The notes: generated by a model not told the origin, from the sequence alone. Positions 5,319 to 54,503 are shown, counted from the first letter of the stretch. The stretch is DNA of 64,000 nucleotides from Clostridia bacterium (GCA_017408585.1 JAFQUJ010000004.1:12662-76661); one strand, 5' to 3'. Translations and numbers: made by a program.

Positions 5319-6410
5319 ATGATTATAAAAAATATAGAATTAACCTGCTTTCGGAGCATAGAGGGGCGGAAGATAGAATTTACGCCGACGGTCAATGTAA
5401 TACATGGCAGAAATGCTCAAGGAAAGACGAACATAATCGAGGCAATATACCTATTTGCGAGGGGGCGAAGCTTTCGTGCGTTTAGGGACAAGGAAATGAT
5501 TATGTTTGACAAGAGCGCGGGCTACGCCTTACTTGAATTTTCAAAGGGTGAGCAGAGCTCGAGGCTAGGAGTACAGCTCAGCCGAAGTGCACCGAAGGCA
5601 TTTTACAAGAATGGCAACAGGGTTGCCAAGACATCTGAGATAATAGGCGAGTTTAGGGCGGTGCTATTTTGCCCATCTCACCTAGGAATAATAAGTGACT
5701 CTCCATCGGTTAGACGAAATTTTCTTGATGTAGCGATAAGCCAGCTAAAGCCCGTGTATATCAAGATGCTATCAAGATATAACGAGGTAGTTTCGGCAAG
5801 AAACGCAATACTCAAAATGGACGAGGCTGAGAGGGCGCAATATCGCGACATGATTGACTTTTATTCAAGCGAGCTAGCGGTATTGTGCGCAGATATAGCC
5901 GATGTACGAAACGAGTATGTCAAGAAGCTAGACTACTGGGTCAAGCAATTTTTCGAGCAAATGACAGATGGCAGAGAAATTCCAAAAATCAGCTATGAAA
6001 CGAACGCATCAAGCGAGGATTTCGAGTCAAGAGAGAGCCTAAAAAACAAGTATGGCAGACTTTTGACGGAAAATTTGGAGCGAGAAATGCGATACGGGGC
6101 GACAATATTTGGAATACACAAGGACGACCTAAAAATCGAGATTAACGGGCGTGAGGCAAGATTTTTCGCATCACAAGGACAGCAACGCTCGCTTGCATTA
6201 GCCATGAAAATGGCGGAGGGCGAGATATCGAGGGAGCACACAGGCGAGTATCCCGTGTTCCTGCTTGACGATGTGCTATCCGAGCTTGACGAGCAAAGGC
6301 GAAGATATGTTTTATCGAACATTAACGACCGACAGGTGATTATCACCTCGTGCGAAACATCGTTCTTTGCAGAGGAAGAAACGAATTTTATTCCAATAAA
6401 CAATGCGTAG
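5319..6410 (+). CDS. recF: DNA replication/repair protein RecF
   Basis: 363 aa. Walker A GRNAQGKTN, ABC signature SQGQQRSLALA, Walker B FLLDDVLSELD. Canonical position after dnaN. Confidence 0.95.
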   Translation: MIIKNIELTCFRSIEGRKIEFTPTVNVIHGRNAQGKTNIIEAIYLFARGRSFRAFRDKEMIMFDKSAGYALLEFSKGEQSSRLGVQLSRSAPKAFYKNGNRVAKTSEIIGEFRAVLFCPSHLGIISDSPSVRRNFLDVAISQLKPVYIKMLSRYNEVVSARNAILKMDEAERAQYRDMIDFYSSELAVLCADIADVRNEYVKKLDYWVKQFFEQMTDGREIPKISYETNASSEDFESRESLKNKYGRLLTENLEREMRYGATIFGIHKDDLKIEINGREARFFASQGQQRSLALAMKMAEGEISREHTGEYPVFLLDDVLSELDEQRRRYVLSNINDRQVIITSCETSFFAEEETNFIPINNA

Positions 6411-6670
6411 AGTGCTACGCAAGTGCGGACCGGGGACGCCCCCGGAGGCGAACTGATTAAATCGAAATTTGGCTCTCGACCCGCGTCGAGTGAGGAATGA
6501 ATTGTGCCTTTGGCACATGAATTGCAACTGCGTTGCATGAATTGAACGCAAGCGTTCATGATTTGCTCCTACGGAGCATTAATGCATACAAGGTGTGCAA
6601 TTCATGACACAGGGTGTCAATTAATGGCGTTAGCCAATTCACGCCCACAGGGCTATTCATTCCAAAGGAT
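6405..6670. repeat. composite repeat: GC-hairpin module plus CATGAAT-linked hairpin array (recF-remB spacer)
   Basis: Stop-spanning hairpin gcgtag-agtg-ctacgc. Module gcggaccggggacgcccccggaggcgaac…aaatcgaaatttggctctcgacccgcgtcgag. Then seven or eight small hairpins with catgaatt / caattcatg linkers. Near-identical copies at 54461-54640, and inverted at 28640-28797 and 25799-25925. Confidence 0.9.
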
Positions 6671-6680
6671 AATATATAAA

Positions 6681-6923
6681 ATGTATATACATATAGGAAG
6701 CAATAAAAGTGTAAGGGCGTGCGATATTGTGGCTGTTTTCGACCTAGATACAGCGACGGTGTCGGTGCATACGAGAAGCTTTTTATCAACAGCTCAAAGA
6801 GAGGGCAGAGTTAAGGCGCTTGGCACAGATTTGCCAAAATCATTCATTATTATGAAGGATAATACAATCTATCTTAGCCCATTTAATACAGCAACAATCT
6901 CAAAGGACATACTTTTTCTTTAA
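6681..6923 (+). CDS. remB: DUF370 / RemB-like small protein
   Basis: The ORF 6558.. is trimmed to MYIHIGSNKSV at 6681; the upstream part is repeat sequence. About 80 aa in the conserved recF-(yaaB/remB)-gyrB position. The last codons and the stop lie inside a triad repeat. Confidence 0.72.
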   Translation: MYIHIGSNKSVRACDIVAVFDLDTATVSVHTRSFLSTAQREGRVKALGTDLPKSFIIMKDNTIYLSPFNTATISKDILFL

Positions 6924-6950
6924 GCAAAAGAAAAAGTATGCAAAAATAAG
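6912..6950 (-). repeat. Y-Y-R triad element in reverse orientation (degenerate mirror arm) overlapping the remB stop
   Basis: CTTTTTCTTT-aagc-AAAAGAAAAAG-tatgc-AAAAATAAG. Confidence 0.65.
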
Positions 6951-7150
6951 TGACACTCGAAATTTTAATTTCGCTAGTGGAAGTTATCCCCGAGAAAAGC
7001 GAGTGGGGGAAACTATGATAAAAAACCAATATCGTAATAATTGCGTGATTGAAGCAAGCAAAAGAAAAGTATGCAAAAATAAGTGACACTCGAAATTTTA
7101 ATTTCGCTAGTGGAAGTTATCCCCGAGAGAAACGAGTGGGGGAAACTATA
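6936..7150. repeat. two copies of an ~82-nt repeat spaced 133 nt apart, in the remB-gyrB spacer
   Basis: gtatgcaaaaataagtgacactcgaaattttaatttcgctagtggaagttatccccgaga(a/g)aa(g/a)cgagtgggggaaacta at 6936-7017 and 7069-7150. Contains the bulged hairpin cact-cgaaat-ttta-atttcg-(ct)-agtg. A partial third copy lies at 7424-7460. Confidence 0.85.
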
Positions 7151-7250
7151 TATAACTAAAATGTGATAAAAATGCGACAAGGCTCTCGTGCCTTGCAAAG
7201 TAGTCCGTTTTGTCCGTTTTGGTGTGATAAAATAACTAACAGAGCGATAG

Positions 7251-7372
7251 TTAAATGCGGACCGGGGACGCCCCCGGAGGCGAACTAATTAAATCGAAAT
7301 TTGGCTCTCGACCCGCGTCGAGTGCTCCTGCGGAGCGTTTGGACACCCACGGAGGCGAACCAATTAAATGGT
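7251..7372. repeat. GC-hairpin module (one full copy plus one partial)
   Basis: aaatgcggaccggggacgcccccggaggcgaactaattaaatcgaaatttggctctcgacccgcgtcgagtg, then …cccacggaggcgaaccaattaaatgg. Confidence 0.85.
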
Positions 7373-7385
7373 TTTCATAGTAAGA

Positions 7386-7411
7386 TTTCTTTTTTGGTAG
7401 CTTTTTTCTTT
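7386..7411 (+). repeat. truncated Y-Y-R triad element (purine arm missing) upstream of gyrB
   Basis: TTTCTTTTTT-ggtag-CTTTTTTCTTT followed by unrelated sequence. Confidence 0.7.
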
Positions 7412-7450
7412 GGAGAAATGCTTTCACACTCGAAATTTTAATTTCGTTAG

Positions 7451-9712
<2,262 letters not shown>

Positions 9713-46480: not shown

Positions 46481-49400
46481 ATGAAAAAGCTAATAACAAT
46501 GCTTGCTATGTGCATAATTTTGTGCTGTGCGCTTGTGCTTTCGGTTAGTGCGGCAACCTCGGTTACTGATGACGGAAGCAATGTAACGCTTGGCGATTGC
46601 ACGATAGCAAATCTTGACGGAGTGACAATTCCGTCACCAACAAGAGGTCTTGCATATTCTCTTGATGATGAAACAATGACCGCAACTGTAACGGGCAGAG
46701 GCTCGTTTGCAGGTGGCGACCTTGTTATCCCATCAACCGTAACTTATGGCGGTGAGGTATACAATGTTAAAACTGTTGCACCATTTGCTTTTAACGGTTC
46801 AAACGGTGGATGGCTCACTTACAACATCTATGTTCCCGACTGTGTTACCCGTTTGGGTGGCGGTGGCTCACAAGGATGTTTTGGTAACTCCAACCTTCGT
46901 GATGTTTACATCGGCTCAGGTCTTACCGAACTTGAACAAGAGGTGTTCAGCGGTTCAAGGGGCGTTACTTCGTTTGTTTTGAAATCTAAGATTACAAAAG
47001 TAGGCGTATACGCATTCAACTCTCTTACAAAGGGTAGTGACCCGTTCAAGGCGTTTGAGCTTGACCTTTCAAATGTTACCCGTTTTGAAAAGCTCGCATT
47101 TAACGGTGCAACTTTTATAAGCGGTATCGACTTCGAATTCTCACCTAACATTGAGTATATCGGTGATGAGGCGTTTATCAGCAGTAAAATTAGCGGAACT
47201 ATAATAATTCCCGAGGATGTTGCACTTGGAAGCCGTTGCTTTAACGGAACAAGCTTTGACCTCGTTGTTATCAATGTTAAGGAAGGCACAGTAAGAGAGC
47301 TTCCTAAGGAGCTTTTCTCGGGTGCAAGCTCGGGACTTAAGGTTGCTATCACCGGTAGAGCGACAACAAACTCAACGCATGTCCTCTCCGGTAACAGTAT
47401 GAGTATTTATATGCAAACAAAGGCTCAAATTGAGGAACTTGTTACTGCAATTTCAAAGCAAACAGGTAGCGACAGACTTGATAATAGTGTAACATACTAC
47501 GCATGCAATGACGGTCTTTCATTCACTTCAACAACAAGCGGAGTGTTAAGCGAAGGTCAAACAGCAAGTGTGCACTGTTGGACTGCCGAGACAGTTGTTC
47601 GTGAGGCAAACTGCACCTACGCAAGACGCGAGGCATATATTTGCTATGCTTGTGGTGATGAAGACATCATTTCCCAAGGAACTGAGCTTGGAAATCACAT
47701 CTTTGAAACATATACAAAGGCTCCTACCTGCCAATCGGTAGGCTATACCGAATATGACTGCACAGTATGTGATCTTCAAGAGGTTGGCGCGTTTGTAGAT
47801 AAGACCGCGCACTCAAATACAGTAGTGATATACGGTGCGGTAAACGGATCAACTCTCGAGGTAAGCTACTACTGCGAATACTGTAACACACTTGACAGAA
47901 CCGAAAATGTAAGCCTTGTAAACAAGTGCTACATTGAGGGCTACGGACTATTTGACGCAACACTTGAATATGTAAGCGTAGATGCAAACGGAGTTGCAAC
48001 TCCCTCGGGCGCTACCTTTGATAATGCAGTAATTTATTTCCCATCATATGTTCAGGTGGGTGACGAGATTGTCGAGGTAAAGACAGTTCAGGGCTTTAAG
48101 GCAAAATCAATCAAGTCAATCTATATTCCCGATACAGTTACAAGAATTGCGGGTGGCTCGGGCGTTGGTTGCTTTGGTGACTGCTACGACCTTAAAAACA
48201 TCGTAGTCGGCAAGGGCGTTACAAAAATCGAGAGAGAAGCCTTTTGCATGGGTAAAGCAATCACCGTTGATGAATTTATCTTCAAGGGAACGATTACCGA
48301 AATCCACTTCAAAGGACTTAATGCAGTAAAACAGGCATCAACAGAAATTCCTTACGAATTTAAAACATATCTTTCATATGTTGGAGCATACGCAAACCTT
48401 GGTGGCTCAATCATAAGAGAGGCACATATTGCCAAGGGCTGTGACCTTAGCGAAAAATTTGCATTTAACGACTCAAACGCACTTGTAACAGTTTATATTG
48501 AGGGTGGCGACACTCCTGAAACCGCACTTGACTTAGGTCAAGAGTTTACAAGTAACACCTCTACACAATACTACTACATCAAGGGTTATGTAACAGTTAG
48601 CGGTCGGGCGGTTCTTTCAGGACTTAACAACACAAGAATTTTCATGGAAAGCGTTGATGCAGTTGATGTATTTGCTAACGCAATAAAGAAACAAGATTTT
48701 GCTTACAGAATGGACAATGCAACATTCCTTGATTGTAAAACACAAAAAACATGGCTTATTAAGTCAGATGCGGACAGAGCAGAGCATACCGTCACCTTCT
48801 TCCATGGAGGTGTTATTACCGAAGCAGAGGCTTCCTGCACACAGGGTGCTATCTTTGTTGAAAGATGCTTTATTTGTGGCGCAACCGTTAGCCAAGAGGT
48901 TGGCGAGCCACTTGAGCATCAGGTTGACGGCGGAGTAATCACGGTTATGCCTAACTGTCGTGACACAGGAAAAATCATTTATACTTGTATTGACTGTGGA
49001 GAAAGTGAGGAGCGCGAAATCTTCCGCGACTACTCAACACATGATTACAAGGTATATCTTGTATATGCACAAGGGCTTGACAAAGCGGGCAACAGAAGCA
49101 CAAAATGCACAATCTGTGACGATATGACAAGCTCTGAGACAACGCTTCCTATCATTGTGGCGCTCGGCTACTCTGTAAGAGATCCAAATGGCGCAAGAGA
49201 TGGTCTTGACGGTGGCTATACAATCAATAACGAGCTACTAAACGAGTATGAAAGACTTAATGGCAAGGTTAGACTTGGAATTATAATCGCAAACGCAAAC
49301 GAGGCAAAGGCAATCGGTCTTGTTGGAGAGGGCTTTAAGGTTCTCGGCGCAAAGGCACTTCAGGTAGAGCTGGAATCTCGTGAATATTCAAGCTTCAACC

Positions 49401-49636
49401 TAAGCATTGTGGGCTTTACAACTGATGCACACAGAGCACTTGACCTCGTAATTAGCGCATACATTGTAGCAGATATTGATGGTGACGGAGCAGAGGAAAT
49501 CTCGTATATTCAATATACACTACCACAAAATAACGCACAGGACACCTTTGGTTCAAGCGTGCTTAATATCGTAAGCATTGACAGAGCGTGCCCGGCCCCT
49601 GTGGTATCTGCTTCTTACACAGGCAAAGAGGACTAA
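46481..49636 (+). CDS. large secreted protein with BspA-type leucine-rich repeats and Cys-rich modules
   Basis: 1051 aa. Signal peptide (…VLSVSAAT). Two blocks of LRR_5-like repeats (IPSTVTYGGEVYNVKTVAPFAF…; IYIPDTVTRIAGGSGVGCF…) separated and followed by CxxC-rich segments. Confidence 0.7.
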   Translation: MKKLITMLAMCIILCCALVLSVSAATSVTDDGSNVTLGDCTIANLDGVTIPSPTRGLAYSLDDETMTATVTGRGSFAGGDLVIPSTVTYGGEVYNVKTVAPFAFNGSNGGWLTYNIYVPDCVTRLGGGGSQGCFGNSNLRDVYIGSGLTELEQEVFSGSRGVTSFVLKSKITKVGVYAFNSLTKGSDPFKAFELDLSNVTRFEKLAFNGATFISGIDFEFSPNIEYIGDEAFISSKISGTIIIPEDVALGSRCFNGTSFDLVVINVKEGTVRELPKELFSGASSGLKVAITGRATTNSTHVLSGNSMSIYMQTKAQIEELVTAISKQTGSDRLDNSVTYYACNDGLSFTSTTSGVLSEGQTASVHCWTAETVVREANCTYARREAYICYACGDEDIISQGTELGNHIFETYTKAPTCQSVGYTEYDCTVCDLQEVGAFVDKTAHSNTVVIYGAVNGSTLEVSYYCEYCNTLDRTENVSLVNKCYIEGYGLFDATLEYVSVDANGVATPSGATFDNAVIYFPSYVQVGDEIVEVKTVQGFKAKSIKSIYIPDTVTRIAGGSGVGCFGDCYDLKNIVVGKGVTKIEREAFCMGKAITVDEFIFKGTITEIHFKGLNAVKQASTEIPYEFKTYLSYVGAYANLGGSIIREAHIAKGCDLSEKFAFNDSNALVTVYIEGGDTPETALDLGQEFTSNTSTQYYYIKGYVTVSGRAVLSGLNNTRIFMESVDAVDVFANAIKKQDFAYRMDNATFLDCKTQKTWLIKSDADRAEHTVTFFHGGVITEAEASCTQGAIFVERCFICGATVSQEVGEPLEHQVDGGVITVMPNCRDTGKIIYTCIDCGESEEREIFRDYSTHDYKVYLVYAQGLDKAGNRSTKCTICDDMTSSETTLPIIVALGYSVRDPNGARDGLDGGYTINNELLNEYERLNGKVRLGIIIANANEAKAIGLVGEGFKVLGAKALQVELESREYSSFNLSIVGFTTDAHRALDLVISAYIVADIDGDGAEEISYIQYTLPQNNAQDTFGSSVLNIVSIDRACPAPVVSASYTGKED

Positions 49637-49643
49637 AACAATA

Positions 49644-49673
49644 AAAGAGCTTCATTTTGAAGCTCTTTTTTTG
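49644..49673 (+). terminator. rho-independent terminator of the LRR protein gene
   Basis: aaagagcttc-atttt-gaagctcttt followed by a T-run. Confidence 0.8.
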
Positions 49674-49712: not shown

Positions 49713-49746
49713 TTTACTTTTTATCTATTTTATGCTAGAATATAAT
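49713..49746 (+). promoter_or_regulatory. candidate promoter of the hydrogenase-like/TIR/asparaginase operon
   Basis: TTTACT 49713-49718, 17-nt spacer ending TGC, TAGAAT 49736-49741. An overlapping TATAAT lies at 49741-49746. Confidence 0.55.
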
Positions 49747-49778
49747 TTGAATAAGACTGTTTTGGGGAAGAGGATTAT

Positions 49779-51206
49779 ATGAGGGAGAAAAGAAGGTTTG
49801 ACACAGAGGTTCAATATGTAAAATATAAGGTGCTAAAGGAGGTCGCTCGCAGAAAGTGGGACAACACTCTGCTTGAAACGATTTTTGACATTCCCAAAAT
49901 TATAGTTTCGGGTAATACGCCAAGCGCCAGATGCTGTGTTTACAAGGAAAGAGCAATAGTTGAGGAGCGAATAAGAATGGCGATGGGTGGCGACAAGTCC
50001 AACCCTAATGTTATCGAGGTAATCGGTATCGCCTGTGACGAGTGTCCCGCAGGTGGATACGAGGTTGGAAGCGCTTGCCGTGGCTGTCTTGCTCACAACT
50101 GTGAATATGTTTGCAAGTTTGGCGCGCTCACCTTCGACGAGAACCATGTTGCGCACATTGATAAATCAAAATGCGTTGAGTGCGGTCAATGCTCACGAGT
50201 TTGCCCCTATGGCGCTATAACTCACCGTACACGCCCTTGCGAGAAGGCGTGTAAAATCAAGGCGATTTACGCAGGTGGTGAAACTAAGGAGGCAAAAATC
50301 GACAATACAACCTGTATTGCGTGTGGAAACTGCGTTTACCATTGTCCGTGGGGCGCAATTTCCGATAAATCCTATATTTGTGATGTAATCGATATGCTAA
50401 AGAGCGCTAAGCGTGAGGGCTACAATGTTTACGCAGTTGTCGCTCCGTCAATTCTCACACAGTTTGCTTACGCAAAGCCGGGACAGGTGATTGCGGGAAT
50501 TAAGGCGCTCGGCTTTACCGATGTTATCGAGGCTGCGCTAGGCGCTGATATGGTTGCAGACGAGGAGTCAAGGGAGCTGGTTGAAAAGGGCTCGCTTATC
50601 AGCTCGTGCTGTCCTGCGTTTGTTTCGCATGTTGAAAAGCAATTCCCCGAGCTTTTACCGCTTGTTTCAAGCACGCTCTCACCCATGGCATCAATTTGTA
50701 GGTTCTTCAAGCTACGAGAGCCAAGCGCGAAATTCGTCTTTATCGGCCCTTGTACTGCGAAAAAGCTCGAATTCCAAAAGGAAGGCGTGCGCGAGTTTGT
50801 CGATAGTGTTATCACCTTTGAGGAGCTTCAAGCGCTATTTGGAAGCCGTGACATAGACATAACCGTGTTTAACGAGGAGCAAACCATCGGCGCTAGCCAC
50901 TTTGGACGCAACTTTGCACGCTGTGGTGGTCTTGCCGATGCAGTAAGAGAGGGCATTTGCGAGCATGGCGAGAACGAGTTCTTCGAGCTTAAAAGCGTTT
51001 CGTGTAACGGAATTGAGCAATGCGTTAGCGCACTTATCAAAATGAAATATGGCAAGCTTGATGTCAACTTCATTGAGGGCATGGCGTGCGTCGGTGGCTG
51101 TGTTGGAGGCGCAGGCTGTCCTGTTCACACAACCGATAAGCCACAAAGCGCATCGGGTAACGATGACGAAATTACAAGCATTTTAGAGTCAATCAAAAGA
51201 TTTTAG
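49779..51206 (+). CDS. [FeFe]-hydrogenase-like protein (two 4Fe-4S ferredoxin motifs plus H-cluster domain)
   Basis: CVECGQCSRVCP and CIACGNCVYHCP ferredoxin motifs. H-cluster-like motifs SSCCPAF (L1), GPCTAKKLE (L2) and EGMACVGGCVGGAGCP (L3). Confidence 0.8.
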   Translation: MREKRRFDTEVQYVKYKVLKEVARRKWDNTLLETIFDIPKIIVSGNTPSARCCVYKERAIVEERIRMAMGGDKSNPNVIEVIGIACDECPAGGYEVGSACRGCLAHNCEYVCKFGALTFDENHVAHIDKSKCVECGQCSRVCPYGAITHRTRPCEKACKIKAIYAGGETKEAKIDNTTCIACGNCVYHCPWGAISDKSYICDVIDMLKSAKREGYNVYAVVAPSILTQFAYAKPGQVIAGIKALGFTDVIEAALGADMVADEESRELVEKGSLISSCCPAFVSHVEKQFPELLPLVSSTLSPMASICRFFKLREPSAKFVFIGPCTAKKLEFQKEGVREFVDSVITFEELQALFGSRDIDITVFNEEQTIGASHFGRNFARCGGLADAVREGICEHGENEFFELKSVSCNGIEQCVSALIKMKYGKLDVNFIEGMACVGGCVGGAGCPVHTTDKPQSASGNDDEITSILESIKRF

Positions 51207-51231
51207 GTCTTAGGACTAAAAGGAGAATAAA

Positions 51232-52215
51232 ATGAGCAAAATATTTATTAGCTACTCACACAGAAACGAGGATGTTGCAAAGGAGATTGTCGCCTTCCTT
51301 GAAAAAAACGGAAGTCGTTGCTACATTGACTACCGTGATATCGACCCCGGTAAAAACTACGCCTCTCAGCTCACCAGAGCCATAGGCGATTGCGACCATG
51401 TTGTGCTTATCGCATCAAGCGCCATGAATGGCTCAAGCTATATGCTTAACGAGCTTGATATTATCGTGGAAAAGAACAAGCACCTAGTTCCGTTCTTTAT
51501 CGAGGAATTTGAGATGGATGACGATTTTCGCTTCTATCTTGGTAGGGCGCAGAGAATTATCGCATACCCCGACAAGCCAAGCACATATTTTACAAGGCTT
51601 GCAAGAGCGCTTAATATTGAGGTGAGCGCTGAAAGAGCGCCCGAAAGAGCAGAGACTCTCCCCTCTAACACCAAAAAGATTTTTGACTACATACCTGCTC
51701 GTGGAATTATGATAAACCCCGAGGACAGGGAAAGAAATGTATCGTTCCGCACAGACACCTTTATCAATCTTCTTGGCGGAATTTACGATAAGGTTAATGC
51801 GCTCAACAGCGACGAGCAGGCGCGCGAGATTTTCCATAGCTCAGGCTATGCAAGCGGAAAATCGTTCGCTCAAAGGCTAAATTCTCAATGGGATATGCTT
51901 TCCGACAGCGCACCCGACTATGCTGAAAAGCTCAAAAAATGGTGCGATTTCGACTCCGATGTGGGTTGGGGAAGATTTAGCAGTGAAATCGAAATTAACG
52001 AGGAAACGGGCGAGTTCAAGGGAACTCTTAAAATTAACGAAAGCTTCATCGTTGACAGGCGAGGAGGCAGACCTGTGTGCGAGTTTGTGCGTGGATATTG
52101 CGAGGGCGTAATCGAAACACTACTTAACGCAGGCGTCGAGCTAAAATGCGTAAAATGCCCACTCAAAAACAGATTTAGTAGCGTTTGCGAGTTTGAAATC
52201 GTCCTAGTTGACTAA
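51232..52215 (+). CDS. TIR domain protein fused to a C-terminal V4R-like ligand-binding domain
   Basis: N-terminus MSKIFISYSHRNEDVAKEIVAFLEKNG…IASSAMNGSSYMLNELD resembles the TIR_2 pattern, with a candidate catalytic Glu in NELD. The C-terminus …GWGRF…RPVCEFVRGYCEGVIETLLNAGVELKCVKCPLKNRFSSVCEFEIV matches the V4R consensus (pvC.f..Gy..Gv…C…C.Fei). Confidence 0.72.
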   Translation: MSKIFISYSHRNEDVAKEIVAFLEKNGSRCYIDYRDIDPGKNYASQLTRAIGDCDHVVLIASSAMNGSSYMLNELDIIVEKNKHLVPFFIEEFEMDDDFRFYLGRAQRIIAYPDKPSTYFTRLARALNIEVSAERAPERAETLPSNTKKIFDYIPARGIMINPEDRERNVSFRTDTFINLLGGIYDKVNALNSDEQAREIFHSSGYASGKSFAQRLNSQWDMLSDSAPDYAEKLKKWCDFDSDVGWGRFSSEIEINEETGEFKGTLKINESFIVDRRGGRPVCEFVRGYCEGVIETLLNAGVELKCVKCPLKNRFSSVCEFEIVLVD

Positions 52216-52237
52216 AAATACCTAAAAAGAGGATAAT

Positions 52238-53233
52238 ATGAAGATACTATTTGCTTTTACAGGCGGAACTATCGGCTCAACCCTTTCGGGCGAAACAATC
52301 AGCACCGATAGCTCTAAGCCATACAAAATTATAGATGCGTACAGAGAGGCGTTTGGCATCGATTTCGACTACGATACCGTAGAGCCATATAACGAGCTGA
52401 GCGAGAACAGCACAGGCGACCATTTGAGAGCACTCTGTGATTGTGTTTGCGAGAAAATCAATCTTGGCTATGATGGAATTATCGTAACTCATGGCACAGA
52501 TACCCTTCAATATAGCGCGTCGGCGATTGCCTACTCAATAGGACTCAGCGACACCCCTGTGTGCGTGGTTTCGAGCAATTTTCCAATCGAGGATCCTCGC
52601 TCAAACGCGCTTGCAAACCTAAGAGGCGCAGTTGCTCTGATTAAGAACGCAAGGGGGCTTGGCGCTCGCGGTGCGTTCGTTTCCTATCGAAACCCCGACA
52701 ACACAACAAAAATTTACAGGGCAACTCATTTGCTCGAATCAAAGCCATTTACCGACGAGGTTTGTACTGCGTATGACGCTTATTTTGCGCTTGTCGATGG
52801 TGATAAAATAATAAAAAATCCCGCCCTTTGTGAAATAGAGGACGAGATTGAGCCTATAAAGCCAAGTGGGCTAACAAGGGATTGTGGTGGAATTTTGGTG
52901 CTTGCGCCATATGTTGGAATGACCTATCCACCGTGTCTTGATGGCATAACGCATATAATTTTAAATTCGTACCATTCCGGCACGATTAACACAAAAAGCC
53001 CCGAGGCTGTGTCGTTTTTTGCACACGCAAGAGAAAAGGGCGTAAAGGTTTATTTGACGGGTGCTATGGCAGGGCCGGAGTACGAGAGTGCGACTCTGTT
53101 TGAGAAGCTGGGAATTATACCCATTCGCAATATTTCACCAATTAGCGCATACATTAAGCTATGGATGCTTTTATGCGCGGGCAGAGGCGAGGGTGAAATG
53201 ATGCGCTCACTCTCATGCGACATCGCTCGCTAA
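52238..53233 (+). CDS. L-asparaginase family (type I-like) protein
   Basis: FAFTGGTIGS (catalytic Thr motif), THGTDTL and a later …SYHSGT… Starts 22 nt after the TIR gene. Confidence 0.78.
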   Translation: MKILFAFTGGTIGSTLSGETISTDSSKPYKIIDAYREAFGIDFDYDTVEPYNELSENSTGDHLRALCDCVCEKINLGYDGIIVTHGTDTLQYSASAIAYSIGLSDTPVCVVSSNFPIEDPRSNALANLRGAVALIKNARGLGARGAFVSYRNPDNTTKIYRATHLLESKPFTDEVCTAYDAYFALVDGDKIIKNPALCEIEDEIEPIKPSGLTRDCGGILVLAPYVGMTYPPCLDGITHIILNSYHSGTINTKSPEAVSFFAHAREKGVKVYLTGAMAGPEYESATLFEKLGIIPIRNISPISAYIKLWMLLCAGRGEGEMMRSLSCDIAR

Positions 53234-53250
53234 ATCAAAAGAAAAAGAAA

Positions 53251-53277
53251 AATCGGCAAGCGTCAGCTTGCCGATTT
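53251..53277. terminator. terminator hairpin shared by tRNA-Thr (minus strand) and the asparaginase operon (plus strand)
   Basis: 11-bp stem aatcggcaagc-gtca-gcttgccgatt. A strong T-run follows on the minus strand; only TT follows on the plus strand. Confidence 0.75.
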
Positions 53278-53353
53278 TGGAGCTACTAATCGGAATCGAA
53301 CCGATGACCTCATCCTTACCAAGGATGTGCTCTACCAACTGAGCCATAGTAGC
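53278..53353 (-). tRNA. tRNA-Thr (anticodon GGU)
   Basis: The reverse complement GCTACTA-TG-GCTC-AGTTGGTA-GAGC-A-CATCC-TTGGTAA-GGATG-AGGTC-ATCGG-TTCGATT-CCGAT-TAGTAGC-T-CCA folds into a perfect cloverleaf. Encoded CCA. Own promoter and terminator. Confidence 0.95.
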
Positions 53354-53366
53354 ATTTGCGTAGGTT

Positions 53367-53395
53367 ATTTTATCACAATTATTTCGCTTTGTCAA
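53367..53395 (-). promoter_or_regulatory. promoter of tRNA-Thr
   Basis: On the minus strand: TTGACA (53395-53390), 17-nt spacer ending TGA, TAAAAT (53372-53367). The tRNA 5' end lies about 14 nt downstream. Confidence 0.7.
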
Positions 53396-53513: not shown

Positions 53514-54503
53514 ATGTCACAGGTAAATGAGAATCCGTTTGTGTATAGCGACACGAACAAAAGATATCATACATACGATTACTATTTAAGACACACCTTT
53601 GGCGAAAAGTGCGCTAAGGTGACCTTAGACGCAGGGCTTACTTGCCCTAACATAGACGGTACTTGCTCGTATGGTGGCTGTATATATTGCGCCGGTGGAA
53701 GTGGGGCAAGAACAATAGATAAGCGCCAATCGCTTAGCGAGCAATACAATAGCCAACGAGCTATAATGCTAAAAAAATGGAGCAATATAACTAAGTTTAT
53801 ACCATATCTTCAAGCATATACAAACACGCACACCACCCCCGAGAACCTTGTTCGTATTTTAGACGAGGTAAGGGCGCTTGACGGGGCGGTCATGATAGAT
53901 ATTGCCACAAGGGCTGATTGTCTTGAAAACGAGAAAATCGACATACTAGCCACCCTATCGGAGCAAATTCCACTCACCATAGAGCTGGGGCTTCAAAGTA
54001 GCGATGACGATACCGCAAGGCTGATAAATCGAGGACACACCCTTGACACCTTCATTGATGCGTTTTCGAGAATAAGGGAGCGCGCGCCGAGGGTGAAAAT
54101 CGCTGTTCATATAATCAATGGCTTGCCACGCGAAAATAGAGAGAAAATGCTCAAAACCGCACACACAGTCGCCGATTTGGGCGCAGATATAATCAAAATT
54201 CACCTTCTCCATGTCATAGAGGGAACGCCACTTGCCACCATGTATAAAAGGGGAGAGTACGAGCCACTCACCCTTGAGGAATATGTTAGCATAGTGTGCG
54301 ACCAAATAGAAATTCTTCCAAGCGAAATGGTCATAGAGCGATTGACGGGCGACGCAGAGAGAAGCGAGCTTCTAGCTCCCGAATGGAGCTTAAAAAAGAC
54401 CGTCGTCATAAACGAAATCGACAAGGAGCTATACCGTAGAGGAACATATCAAGGAGCGATGCTACGCAAGTGCGGACCGGGGACGCCCCCGGAGGCGAAC
54501 TAA
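53514..54503 (+). CDS. TIGR01212-family radical SAM protein
   Basis: N-terminus …RYHTYDYYLRHTFGEKCAKVTLDAGLTCPNIDGTCSYGGCIYC is characteristic of TIGR01212 (YhcC-like). The last 14 codons or so (MLRKCGPGTPPEAN) are encoded by a dispersed repeat module. Confidence 0.85.
   Translation: MSQVNENPFVYSDTNKRYHTYDYYLRHTFGEKCAKVTLDAGLTCPNIDGTCSYGGCIYCAGGSGARTIDKRQSLSEQYNSQRAIMLKKWSNITKFIPYLQAYTNTHTTPENLVRILDEVRALDGAVMIDIATRADCLENEKIDILATLSEQIPLTIELGLQSSDDDTARLINRGHTLDTFIDAFSRIRERAPRVKIAVHIINGLPRENREKMLKTAHTVADLGADIIKIHLLHVIEGTPLATMYKRGEYEPLTLEEYVSIVCDQIEILPSEMVIERLTGDAERSELLAPEWSLKKTVVINEIDKELYRRGTYQGAMLRKCGPGTPPEAN

Follow-up and report, generated by a model that had tools for sequence, protein, structure and literature searches.

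The 64,000-nucleotide stretch of Clostridia bacterium DNA analysed here (GCA_017408585.1, JAFQUJ010000004.1:12662-76661; hereafter the window) encodes a 327-residue protein that joins an N-terminal TIR domain to a C-terminal domain of the V4R/Bet3 fold. We call its gene TIR-V4R. The gene directly downstream encodes an asparaginase-family protein, and the conserved unit is these two genes. The pairing recurs across phyla, and other members of the family carry different N-terminal domains on the same C-terminal domain. With a probability of roughly 0.45, we read the pair as a two-gene module in which sensing by the V4R/Bet3-fold domain gates TIR self-association and NAD+ destruction.

In the mechanism we propose, the effector-sensor gene and the enzyme gene behind it would probably be translationally coupled. 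The V4R-type domain would serve as the sensor, binding either the partner protein itself or a small molecule of the partner's reaction (an amino-acid amide, the product or a related metabolite). This binding would govern how the TIR domain self-associates. Self-associated TIR domains could then hydrolyse or otherwise transform NAD+ and bring the cell to arrest. The module as a whole would be a metabolite- or partner-gated NADase switch, comparable to the switches of abortive infection or of stress responses.

In bacteria, plants and animals alike, immunity relies centrally on TIR enzymes fused to sensors. Of the bacterial sensors known, SAVED, STING and SLOG recognise nucleotides, and the Argonaute partner of TIR-APAZ in SPARTA recognises nucleic acids. 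We know of no defence system that uses amino-acid amide metabolism, or an asparaginase-like product, as the trigger of an NAD-depleting response. We rate the window protein as a gated TIR effector whose sensor fold is new and whose enzyme partner has no precedent. If functional, it would bring a V4R/Bet3-fold sensor and an asparaginase-family partner into the TIR repertoire and tie NAD+ destruction to amino-acid amide chemistry. The family comprises ~400 clusters in many phyla, including abundant gut and rumen Clostridia, and is annotated only as 'TIR domain-containing protein'.

A TIR domain on a V4R/Bet3-fold domain

A sequence-only reading of this DNA had proposed a TIR domain at the N-terminus, and both profile and structure bear this out. 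Pfam TIR_2 (PF13676) matches residues 4-94 with 68.7 bits against a cut-off of 28. An AlphaFold2 model of the whole protein, computed with 28 relatives as input, has a mean predicted local distance difference test (pLDDT) score of 82.9, with values of 86-96 across residues 1-100. Its N-terminal part has the flavodoxin-like TIR fold, and Foldseek searches of the PDB returned SPARTA TIR-APAZ, C. elegans TIR-1 and SARM1 at E-values of 1e-6 to 1e-5. The glutamate of the NELD motif, whose conservation had been put forward as a check on the catalytic assignment, is E74. It is invariant in 153 of 153 full-length relatives and aligns with the glutamate of the 'xEL' motif in the plant NADase TIR Roq1 and in TIR-STING. 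By these alignments the window TIR would be of the NAD-cleaving type, with NADase activity. Because the glutamate at the catalytic position is invariant, an active TIR enzyme is favoured over a scaffold.

The C-terminal ~180 residues have the V4R/Bet3 fold (H-NOX-like, with helices on a four-stranded antiparallel sheet), which was matched in two independent models of family members. Foldseek aligned this region to Bet3/TRAPPC3 at template modelling (TM) scores of 0.59-0.67, normalised to the target, and to the whole phenol-sensing domain of PoxR, MopR and DmpR at 0.55-0.62. V4R is matched by 18 of 74 family representatives (best E-value 9.3e-05), and TRAPP, weakly, by nine. V4R and Bet3 are established homologues, and V4R domains are allosteric sensors of hydrophobic ligands (PMC2253512). 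When PDB sequences were searched with a profile of the C-terminal domain, only spurious ferritin matches came up, so the domain's link to MopR and PoxR rests on the fold and on cysteine spacing.

That spacing comes from a set of strongly conserved cysteines. C238, C283, C306, C309 and C319 are invariant and C290 nearly so (151-153 of 153 relatives), and the domain also carries the invariant motifs MINPEDxxRNVSFRTDT and KWCxFDSxVGWG. C283, C309 and C319 are spaced by 26 and 10 residues, with C306 three residues ahead of C309. The zinc ligands of MopR, C155, C181 and C189, are spaced by 26 and 8 (PMC9556785). Distant members have His in place of C306 and keep the remaining three cysteines. Given this conservation and the resemblance to the MopR ligands, the C-terminal domain likely holds a structural zinc site, predicted as Cys4 or Cys3His.

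The known proteins that share this fold differ from the window protein in what they attach to it. Sensing domains of XylR, DmpR, MopR and PoxR (XylR_N plus V4R) align over ~185-190 columns, with a cysteine spacing like that of the MopR zinc site, and have an established role as sensors of small hydrophobic ligands in sigma-54 activators; their sequence similarity to the window domain is marginal. Unlike these NtrC-family regulators, the window protein has neither an AAA+ sigma-54 activator domain nor a helix-turn-helix. It ends with the V4R-type domain, and its output would be the TIR domain. Bet3/TRAPPC3 and archaeal V4R proteins are the top structural matches (TM up to 0.67), but Bet3 is a eukaryotic vesicle-tethering subunit with no enzymatic fusion partner and no asparaginase link. 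The family also gives a tangible way into what V4R domains of bacteria detect beyond the aromatic-responsive regulators.

Exchangeable N-terminal domains and a conserved enzyme partner

The main argument for a gated-effector mechanism is the swapping of N-terminal domains on the constant C-terminal domain. When 1.84 billion representative proteins were searched with the window C-terminal domain, 401 clusters (at 50% identity) matched at E <= 0.001 and 163 at E <= 1e-10. Among the 150 matches listed, the domain occupies a C-terminal or nearly C-terminal position, preceded by N-terminal regions of ~150-400 residues. A Pfam census of the 74 representatives found TIR_2 in 16, a CAP12/Pycsar-type TIR in four, a ThsB-type TIR in five, a MinD/CbiA-type P-loop domain in 13 and Metallophos in four; the rest match none of these N-terminal families. 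The N-terminal domain of P0115 is TIR/deoxyribosyltransferase-like. CARF, SAVED, SLOG and STING effectors likewise swap degradative domains on one constant sensing domain.

Two variants stand out in this set. The MinD-like P-loop variant has the deviant Walker A motif KGGxG[RK][ST] and matches the PADLOC defence-candidate model PDC-M28B at 2e-22 (locus L073) and 1.4e-13 (L076). MinD-like ATPase-V4R genes occur at loci L073, L076, L077, L083, L096, L114, L123 and L146. Four of these (L073, L083, L096 and L114) have two asparaginases, of ~365 and ~490-530 residues. Two common upstream open reading frames (ORFs) occur at L083, L096, L114 and L123, and at L083 and L114 they encode a 2-hydroxyacid-dehydrogenase-like protein and a protein of ~220-230 residues.

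The other variant has a helical, Pfam-silent N-terminal region of ~180 residues, in which LRNxxxH (Rx4H) is conserved in 11 members; its weak matches are to HEPN_Apea (0.012), Csx1 (0.0055) and AbiJ (0.0016). Members from Kapaibacterium and Bacteroidota (L072:5455-6669 and L074:2671-3918) carry a helical domain homologous to the Clostridial Rx4H domain that lacks the Arg and His and may be an inactive version. In Lachnospiraceae, a family of ~510-560 residues with no Pfam match lies directly 5' of the Rx4H-type V4R gene (L063:3854-5434, L070:3677-5350, L092:3884-5425 and L101:1351-2889) and may be a third component of the Rx4H subtype.

Further loci rearrange the same parts. At L095 the TIR and V4R-type parts are separate overlapping ORFs (5510-5977 and 5974-6504) followed by an asparaginase-like gene, an arrangement due to natural splitting or to a frameshift. 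At L079 a CAP12-type TIR (8e-31) is encoded by its own gene, and at L078 and L085 PNP_UDP_1 phosphorylase genes stand between the V4R-type and asparaginase genes. At L049, tandem V4R-type genes (5416-6396 and 6393-7445; 326 and 350 residues) precede one asparaginase-like gene.

The second gene of the module is strongly conserved. Full-length relatives form ~110 clusters at 45-58% identity, all from uncultured gut and rumen Clostridia, from which 77 genomic loci were taken. A second scan with distant C-terminal domains widened the phylum range. Overall, an asparaginase-family gene lies within 100 nt on the same strand at 83 of 98 unique loci; eight more have one elsewhere in the locus and seven have none. 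In the first set the gap from TIR-V4R to the asparaginase gene has a median of ~10 nt, and overlaps of 1-4 nt are frequent. The loci of the second scan come from Alphaproteobacteria, Gammaproteobacteria, Flavobacteriia, Actinomycetota, Planctomycetota, Acidobacteriota, Kiritimatiellota, Aminicenantes, Bipolaricaulota, Thermotogae and a nanoarchaeon. Pairing with an asparaginase gene is retained in Actinomycetota, Planctomycetota, Proteobacteria, Bacteroidota, Acidobacteriota, Kiritimatiellota, Aminicenantes and Bipolaricaulota.

Asparaginase genes are rare, at an estimated one to three per genome, and a pairing this consistent cannot be chance. The two proteins also co-diverge (Mantel r 0.69, a value that none of 999 permutations attained). 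No other gene family is common to more than 7 of 78 loci. The flanks vary between loci, which marks the pair as a self-contained unit. A two-gene unit thus describes the locus better than the one-gene module that had been suggested. Of the two neighbours whose conservation had been proposed as a check, the asparaginase gene passes at the 83 loci where it lies directly downstream; the hydrogenase gene on the other side fails, being adjacent only in the window and in one further locus.

The partner belongs to the asparaginase family, as first read (PF00710; 89.1 bits against a cut-off of 22.5). It aligns over residues 3-313 to the type I L-asparaginase AnsA of Vibrio (2ocd), essentially its full length, and keeps the nucleophile Thr motif TGGT (T8-T11), the substrate Ser (S55) and HGTD (H85-D88), all invariant in 74 of 74 partners. 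Its best NCBIfam matches are GatD and asnASE_I, both far under their cut-offs. Unlike AnsA and GatD, it has no canonical catalytic Lys, no Asparaginase_C profile match and no GatE partner. The column of that Lys ('RGNRATK') holds Glu167 in the window, and Lys in none of 66 Clostridial-type and all eight distant canonical partners, a result that depends on the alignment, with an insertion close by. Stand-alone relatives (L148-L177) have no Lys at this column either. This suggests, from alignment, an altered active site or another substrate, and not necessarily a dead enzyme. The idea of a pseudo-enzyme partner was accordingly softened, since lysine-less asparaginase-like genes are often found standing alone. 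A link to GatB/AspS (tRNA amidotransferase), prompted by the GatD-like match and by L101, was also considered and dropped: it is sporadic, at 3 of 105 neighbours and few loci.

Immune effector or metabolic regulator

Several results weigh against a gated NADase with a role in arrest or defence. Pfam V4R (PF02830) scores 23.5 bits over residues 266-323, under its cut-off of 31, so that the original V4R call survives as a fold, by AlphaFold2 and Foldseek, but not as Pfam membership. For the helical variant, the model of P0116 is poor at the N-terminus (pLDDT 35-65); Foldseek matched its C-terminal domain only, and a PDB profile search found nothing.

The genomic context is likewise not that of a defence system. 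Pfam and PADLOC censuses of 105 immediate neighbours gave no defence-island signal; these neighbours are mostly housekeeping genes (MnmA, GatB, Spo0A, PNP, ABC transporters), with few convincing PADLOC matches. No recognisable defence system occurs among the 50 ORFs of the window, where PADLOC matches are of a generic ATPase type. The PADLOC model mad3 is matched by one ORF of the window (1.2e-32), and a second ORF gives a match to a CARF-beta-galactosidase-type model (3.8e-18). Neither 50,697 phage nor 72,556 plasmid records contain the C-terminal domain, and 2.9 million viral contigs (IMG/VR) yielded one distant match, with an asparaginase gene 45 nt downstream. No viral protein structure in BFVD shares the C-terminal fold. 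The sequence-only reading had put forward a ligand-gated NADase in defence or metabolism. Its architecture does fit a gated effector, but the defence context that it had offered for checking with PADLOC did not appear, and any defence role is inferred.

The pairing, too, has its exceptions. The seven V4R-type loci without an asparaginase gene include two on short contigs. Among the 30 new full-length relatives listed by a reciprocal scan with the partner, 29 had no V4R-type gene nearby, the exception being a re-fetch of L033. These stand-alone relatives are interspersed with linked copies, the nearest relative being a linked protein in 15 of 27. Because the asparaginase-like family also stands alone in this way, dependence is one-way, and the V4R-type gene has been repeatedly gained or lost beside a resident enzyme family. 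An early description as an obligate pair was softened for the same reason. Such dependence fits an accessory protein on a resident metabolic enzyme no less than an immune module. At L038, finally, a pyridoxal phosphate (PLP)-dependent PALP-family enzyme (7000-8319; 151 bits) begins 15 nt after the TIR-V4R gene in the asparaginase's place, and is a non-homologous partner replacement.

The stand-alone copies sit in varied contexts. Three lysine-less ones (L169:1572-2948, L171:109-1530 and L175:4301-6052) lie beside one aminoacyl-tRNA synthetase-like family, whose members were called asnS/aspS-like by eye from N-terminal sequences only. In the same organism group, TIR-V4R genes without an adjacent asparaginase occur at L089 (Borkfalkia) and at L058 and L059 (Christensenellaceae, Ornithoclostridium metagenome-assembled genomes). 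In these organisms the two genes may act unlinked.

The strongest alternative is metabolic regulation. The V4R-type protein would be an optional regulatory or sensing subunit of a resident asparaginase-like amidohydrolase in amino-acid and nitrogen metabolism, its TIR domain would serve oligomerisation or the sensing or turnover of NAD+ in metabolic signalling, and phage defence would play no part. The repeated gain and loss of the V4R gene beside widespread stand-alone enzymes speaks for such a subunit, as do the housekeeping flanks, the asnS-like neighbours of some stand-alone copies, and the location of the module on chromosomes and not on mobile elements. V4R domains, moreover, are known allosteric sensors of hydrophobic ligands (PMC2253512). 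Distant operons also hold PLP decarboxylases, 2-hydroxyacid-dehydrogenase-like and PAD-like proteins, and together with the PALP enzyme of L038 they hint at amino-acid chemistry as a common theme. However, the domains that replace the TIR domain (CAP12-type TIR, Metallophos, PNP, HEPN-like) are degradative, effector-type domains, common in conflict systems and atypical as metabolic regulators. The invariant glutamate at the catalytic position speaks for an active TIR enzyme, and patchy distribution and variable flanks also sit poorly with a purely metabolic role. We consider such a role unlikely, if still a real contender. Were it correct, a TIR domain that looks catalytically competent would be serving housekeeping control, which would be unusual.

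The gated-effector reading can also be extended to the whole family. In its widest form, it would describe a hitherto unrecognised, phylum-spanning immune or stress class whose V4R/Bet3 sensor is always coupled to asparaginase-family enzymes and controls interchangeable effectors (several TIR types, HEPN-like, PNP, Metallophos and MinD-like ATPase), with amide metabolism or an asparaginase-like product as the trigger or second messenger of an NAD-depleting response. This generalisation is doubtful, though well worth entertaining.

Known TIR systems provide the template for such effectors without accommodating this one. TIR-SAVED and TIR-STING of the cyclic oligonucleotide-based antiphage signalling system (CBASS), CAP12/Pycsar TIR and SPARTA TIR-APAZ also have an N-terminal TIR with a glutamate at the catalytic position, a C-terminal sensor and an interchangeable effector, and the best PADLOC match of the TIR-V4R protein is SAVED_TIR (3.4e-10). 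In contrast to all of them, the sensor here is V4R/Bet3 and not SAVED, STING, cNMP-binding or APAZ, and none has an asparaginase-family partner. No CD-NTase, cyclase or Argonaute gene is found among conserved or frequent neighbours, which places the module outside CBASS and Pycsar. The suggestion that no described system has this architecture agrees with what was searched: no PADLOC model covers TIR-V4R plus asparaginase, and within the literature searched no paper was found to connect either V4R or asparaginase to TIR proteins or to defence, or to mention PDC-M28.

Thoeris likewise has two genes and a bacterial TIR protein. By analogy, TIR-V4R would act as a ThsB-like sensor, producing a signal from NAD upon infection, and the asparaginase-like partner, an enzyme encoded second, would be a signal-activated effector that depletes asparagine or glutamine. 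The TIR domain weakly resembles ThsB models (1.9e-09) and ThcB4, the NCBIfam model for Thoeris type III (1.8e-07), and five family members match the ThsB_TIR profile. However, the ThsB and ThcB4 matches span the generic TIR core only, and ThcB4 scores 30.4 bits, far below its cut-off of 220. The partner gives no PADLOC match and carries none of the known signal-receiver domains, SLOG, Macro and SIR2 among them, and no ThsA-type partner (SIR2, Macro or transmembrane with SLOG) is among the top 25 listed families of the neighbour and window censuses, which sets the module apart from Thoeris. Elsewhere in the family the TIR domain is replaced by non-signalling domains (HEPN-like, Metallophos, MinD-like) with the asparaginase retained, the partner family also exists alone, and Clostridial partners lack the canonical catalytic Lys by alignment. 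A Thoeris-like scheme is therefore quite improbable.

The locus and its neighbours in the window

In the window the module is preceded by a hydrogenase gene, and the three ORFs, of 475, 327 and 331 residues, lie on one strand with gaps of 25 and 22 nt (Table 1). These coordinates are exactly as first described.

Table 1. Features of the TIR-V4R locus, in positions of the window
Feature	Coordinates	Strand	Basis and remarks
Palindromic terminator	49643..49669	.	Called on both strands with 12 pairs; terminates the preceding BspA-LRR gene and delimits the transcription unit at its 5' end
Promoter-like site TTTACT-17-TAGAAT with TG extension	49713..49741	+	Consensus scan 9/12; consensus match only; precedes the hydrogenase gene
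Group B monomeric [FeFe] hydrogenase	49779..51206	+	TIGR04105; Fe_hyd_lg_C and Fer4 domains
TIR-V4R gene	51232..52215	+	
TIR domain, residues 1-126	51232..51609	+	TIR_2 and Foldseek matches; Glu74 codon 51451-51453
Linker, residues 127-150, poorly conserved	51610..51681	+	pLDDT <50 at residues 134-150; variable alignment columns
V4R/Bet3-fold sensor-type domain, residues 151-327 and stop codon	51682..52215	+	Foldseek; Pfam V4R below threshold
Asparaginase-family protein	52238..53233	+	PF00710; aligned to AnsA 2ocd
Hairpin, A-tract on one side, T-tract on the other	53249..53278	.	13 pairs, called on minus strand

The upstream gene, first described as hydrogenase-like, encodes a genuine group B [FeFe] hydrogenase: TIGR04105 scores 523.7 bits against a cut-off of 450, and the H-cluster motifs SSCCP, PCTAKKLE and MACVGGCVGG are present. 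By tblastn and ORF clustering, it adjoins the TIR-V4R gene only in the window and at L001; the remaining 76 loci of the first set lack it. L001 is the closest relative, with 83% identity in the TIR protein, and its three genes are co-directional with gaps of 23 and 53 nt. The hydrogenase is a lineage-specific operon neighbour outside the conserved module, and the claim of a three-gene unit, with a metabolic sensor using the neighbouring hydrogenase, falls with its linkage. A function tied to it, in which the [FeFe] hydrogenase would depend on TIR-V4R for the sensing of a redox state or metabolite, or on the asparaginase for ammonia in its maturation, is very improbable: the co-directional genes and short gaps of the window and L001 favour it, but the adjacency is confined to these two loci, no hydrogenase or maturase family is among the top 25 of the neighbour census, and the pair is found in numerous organisms and settings that have nothing to do with hydrogen metabolism.

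Within the window, the hydrogenase gene is probably co-transcribed with the TIR-V4R and asparaginase genes. A scan of the window found no terminator between the three genes, and a GGAG/GAGG ribosome-binding site lies 6-8 nt 5' of each. The promoter-like site, upstream terminator and downstream hairpin of the earlier description were all recovered by the scan. It called the hairpin as the terminator of a convergent tRNA-Thr(GGT) gene (53278-53353, minus strand). Because an A-tract flanks it on one side and a T-tract on the other, it could act both ways, and it is a probable bidirectional terminator shared by the operon and the tRNA gene. The GC content of the locus (0.445-0.475) is the same as in the remainder of the window, in keeping with the host-like composition first noted.

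Directly 5' of the locus, 46481-49636 (plus strand) encodes a secreted protein of 1051 residues with BspA-type leucine-rich repeats (LRR_5) and repeated Cys-rich clusters of the CxxC type. Downstream, 53514-54503 (plus strand) encodes the MnmL/YtqA tRNA-modification radical SAM protein (TIGR01212, 318 bits), common to L001 and no other loci. The strongest promoter-like site of the region lies just 5' of the tRNA-Thr(GGT) gene, at 53367-53395 (TTGACA-17-TAAAAT, 11/12, with a TG extension).

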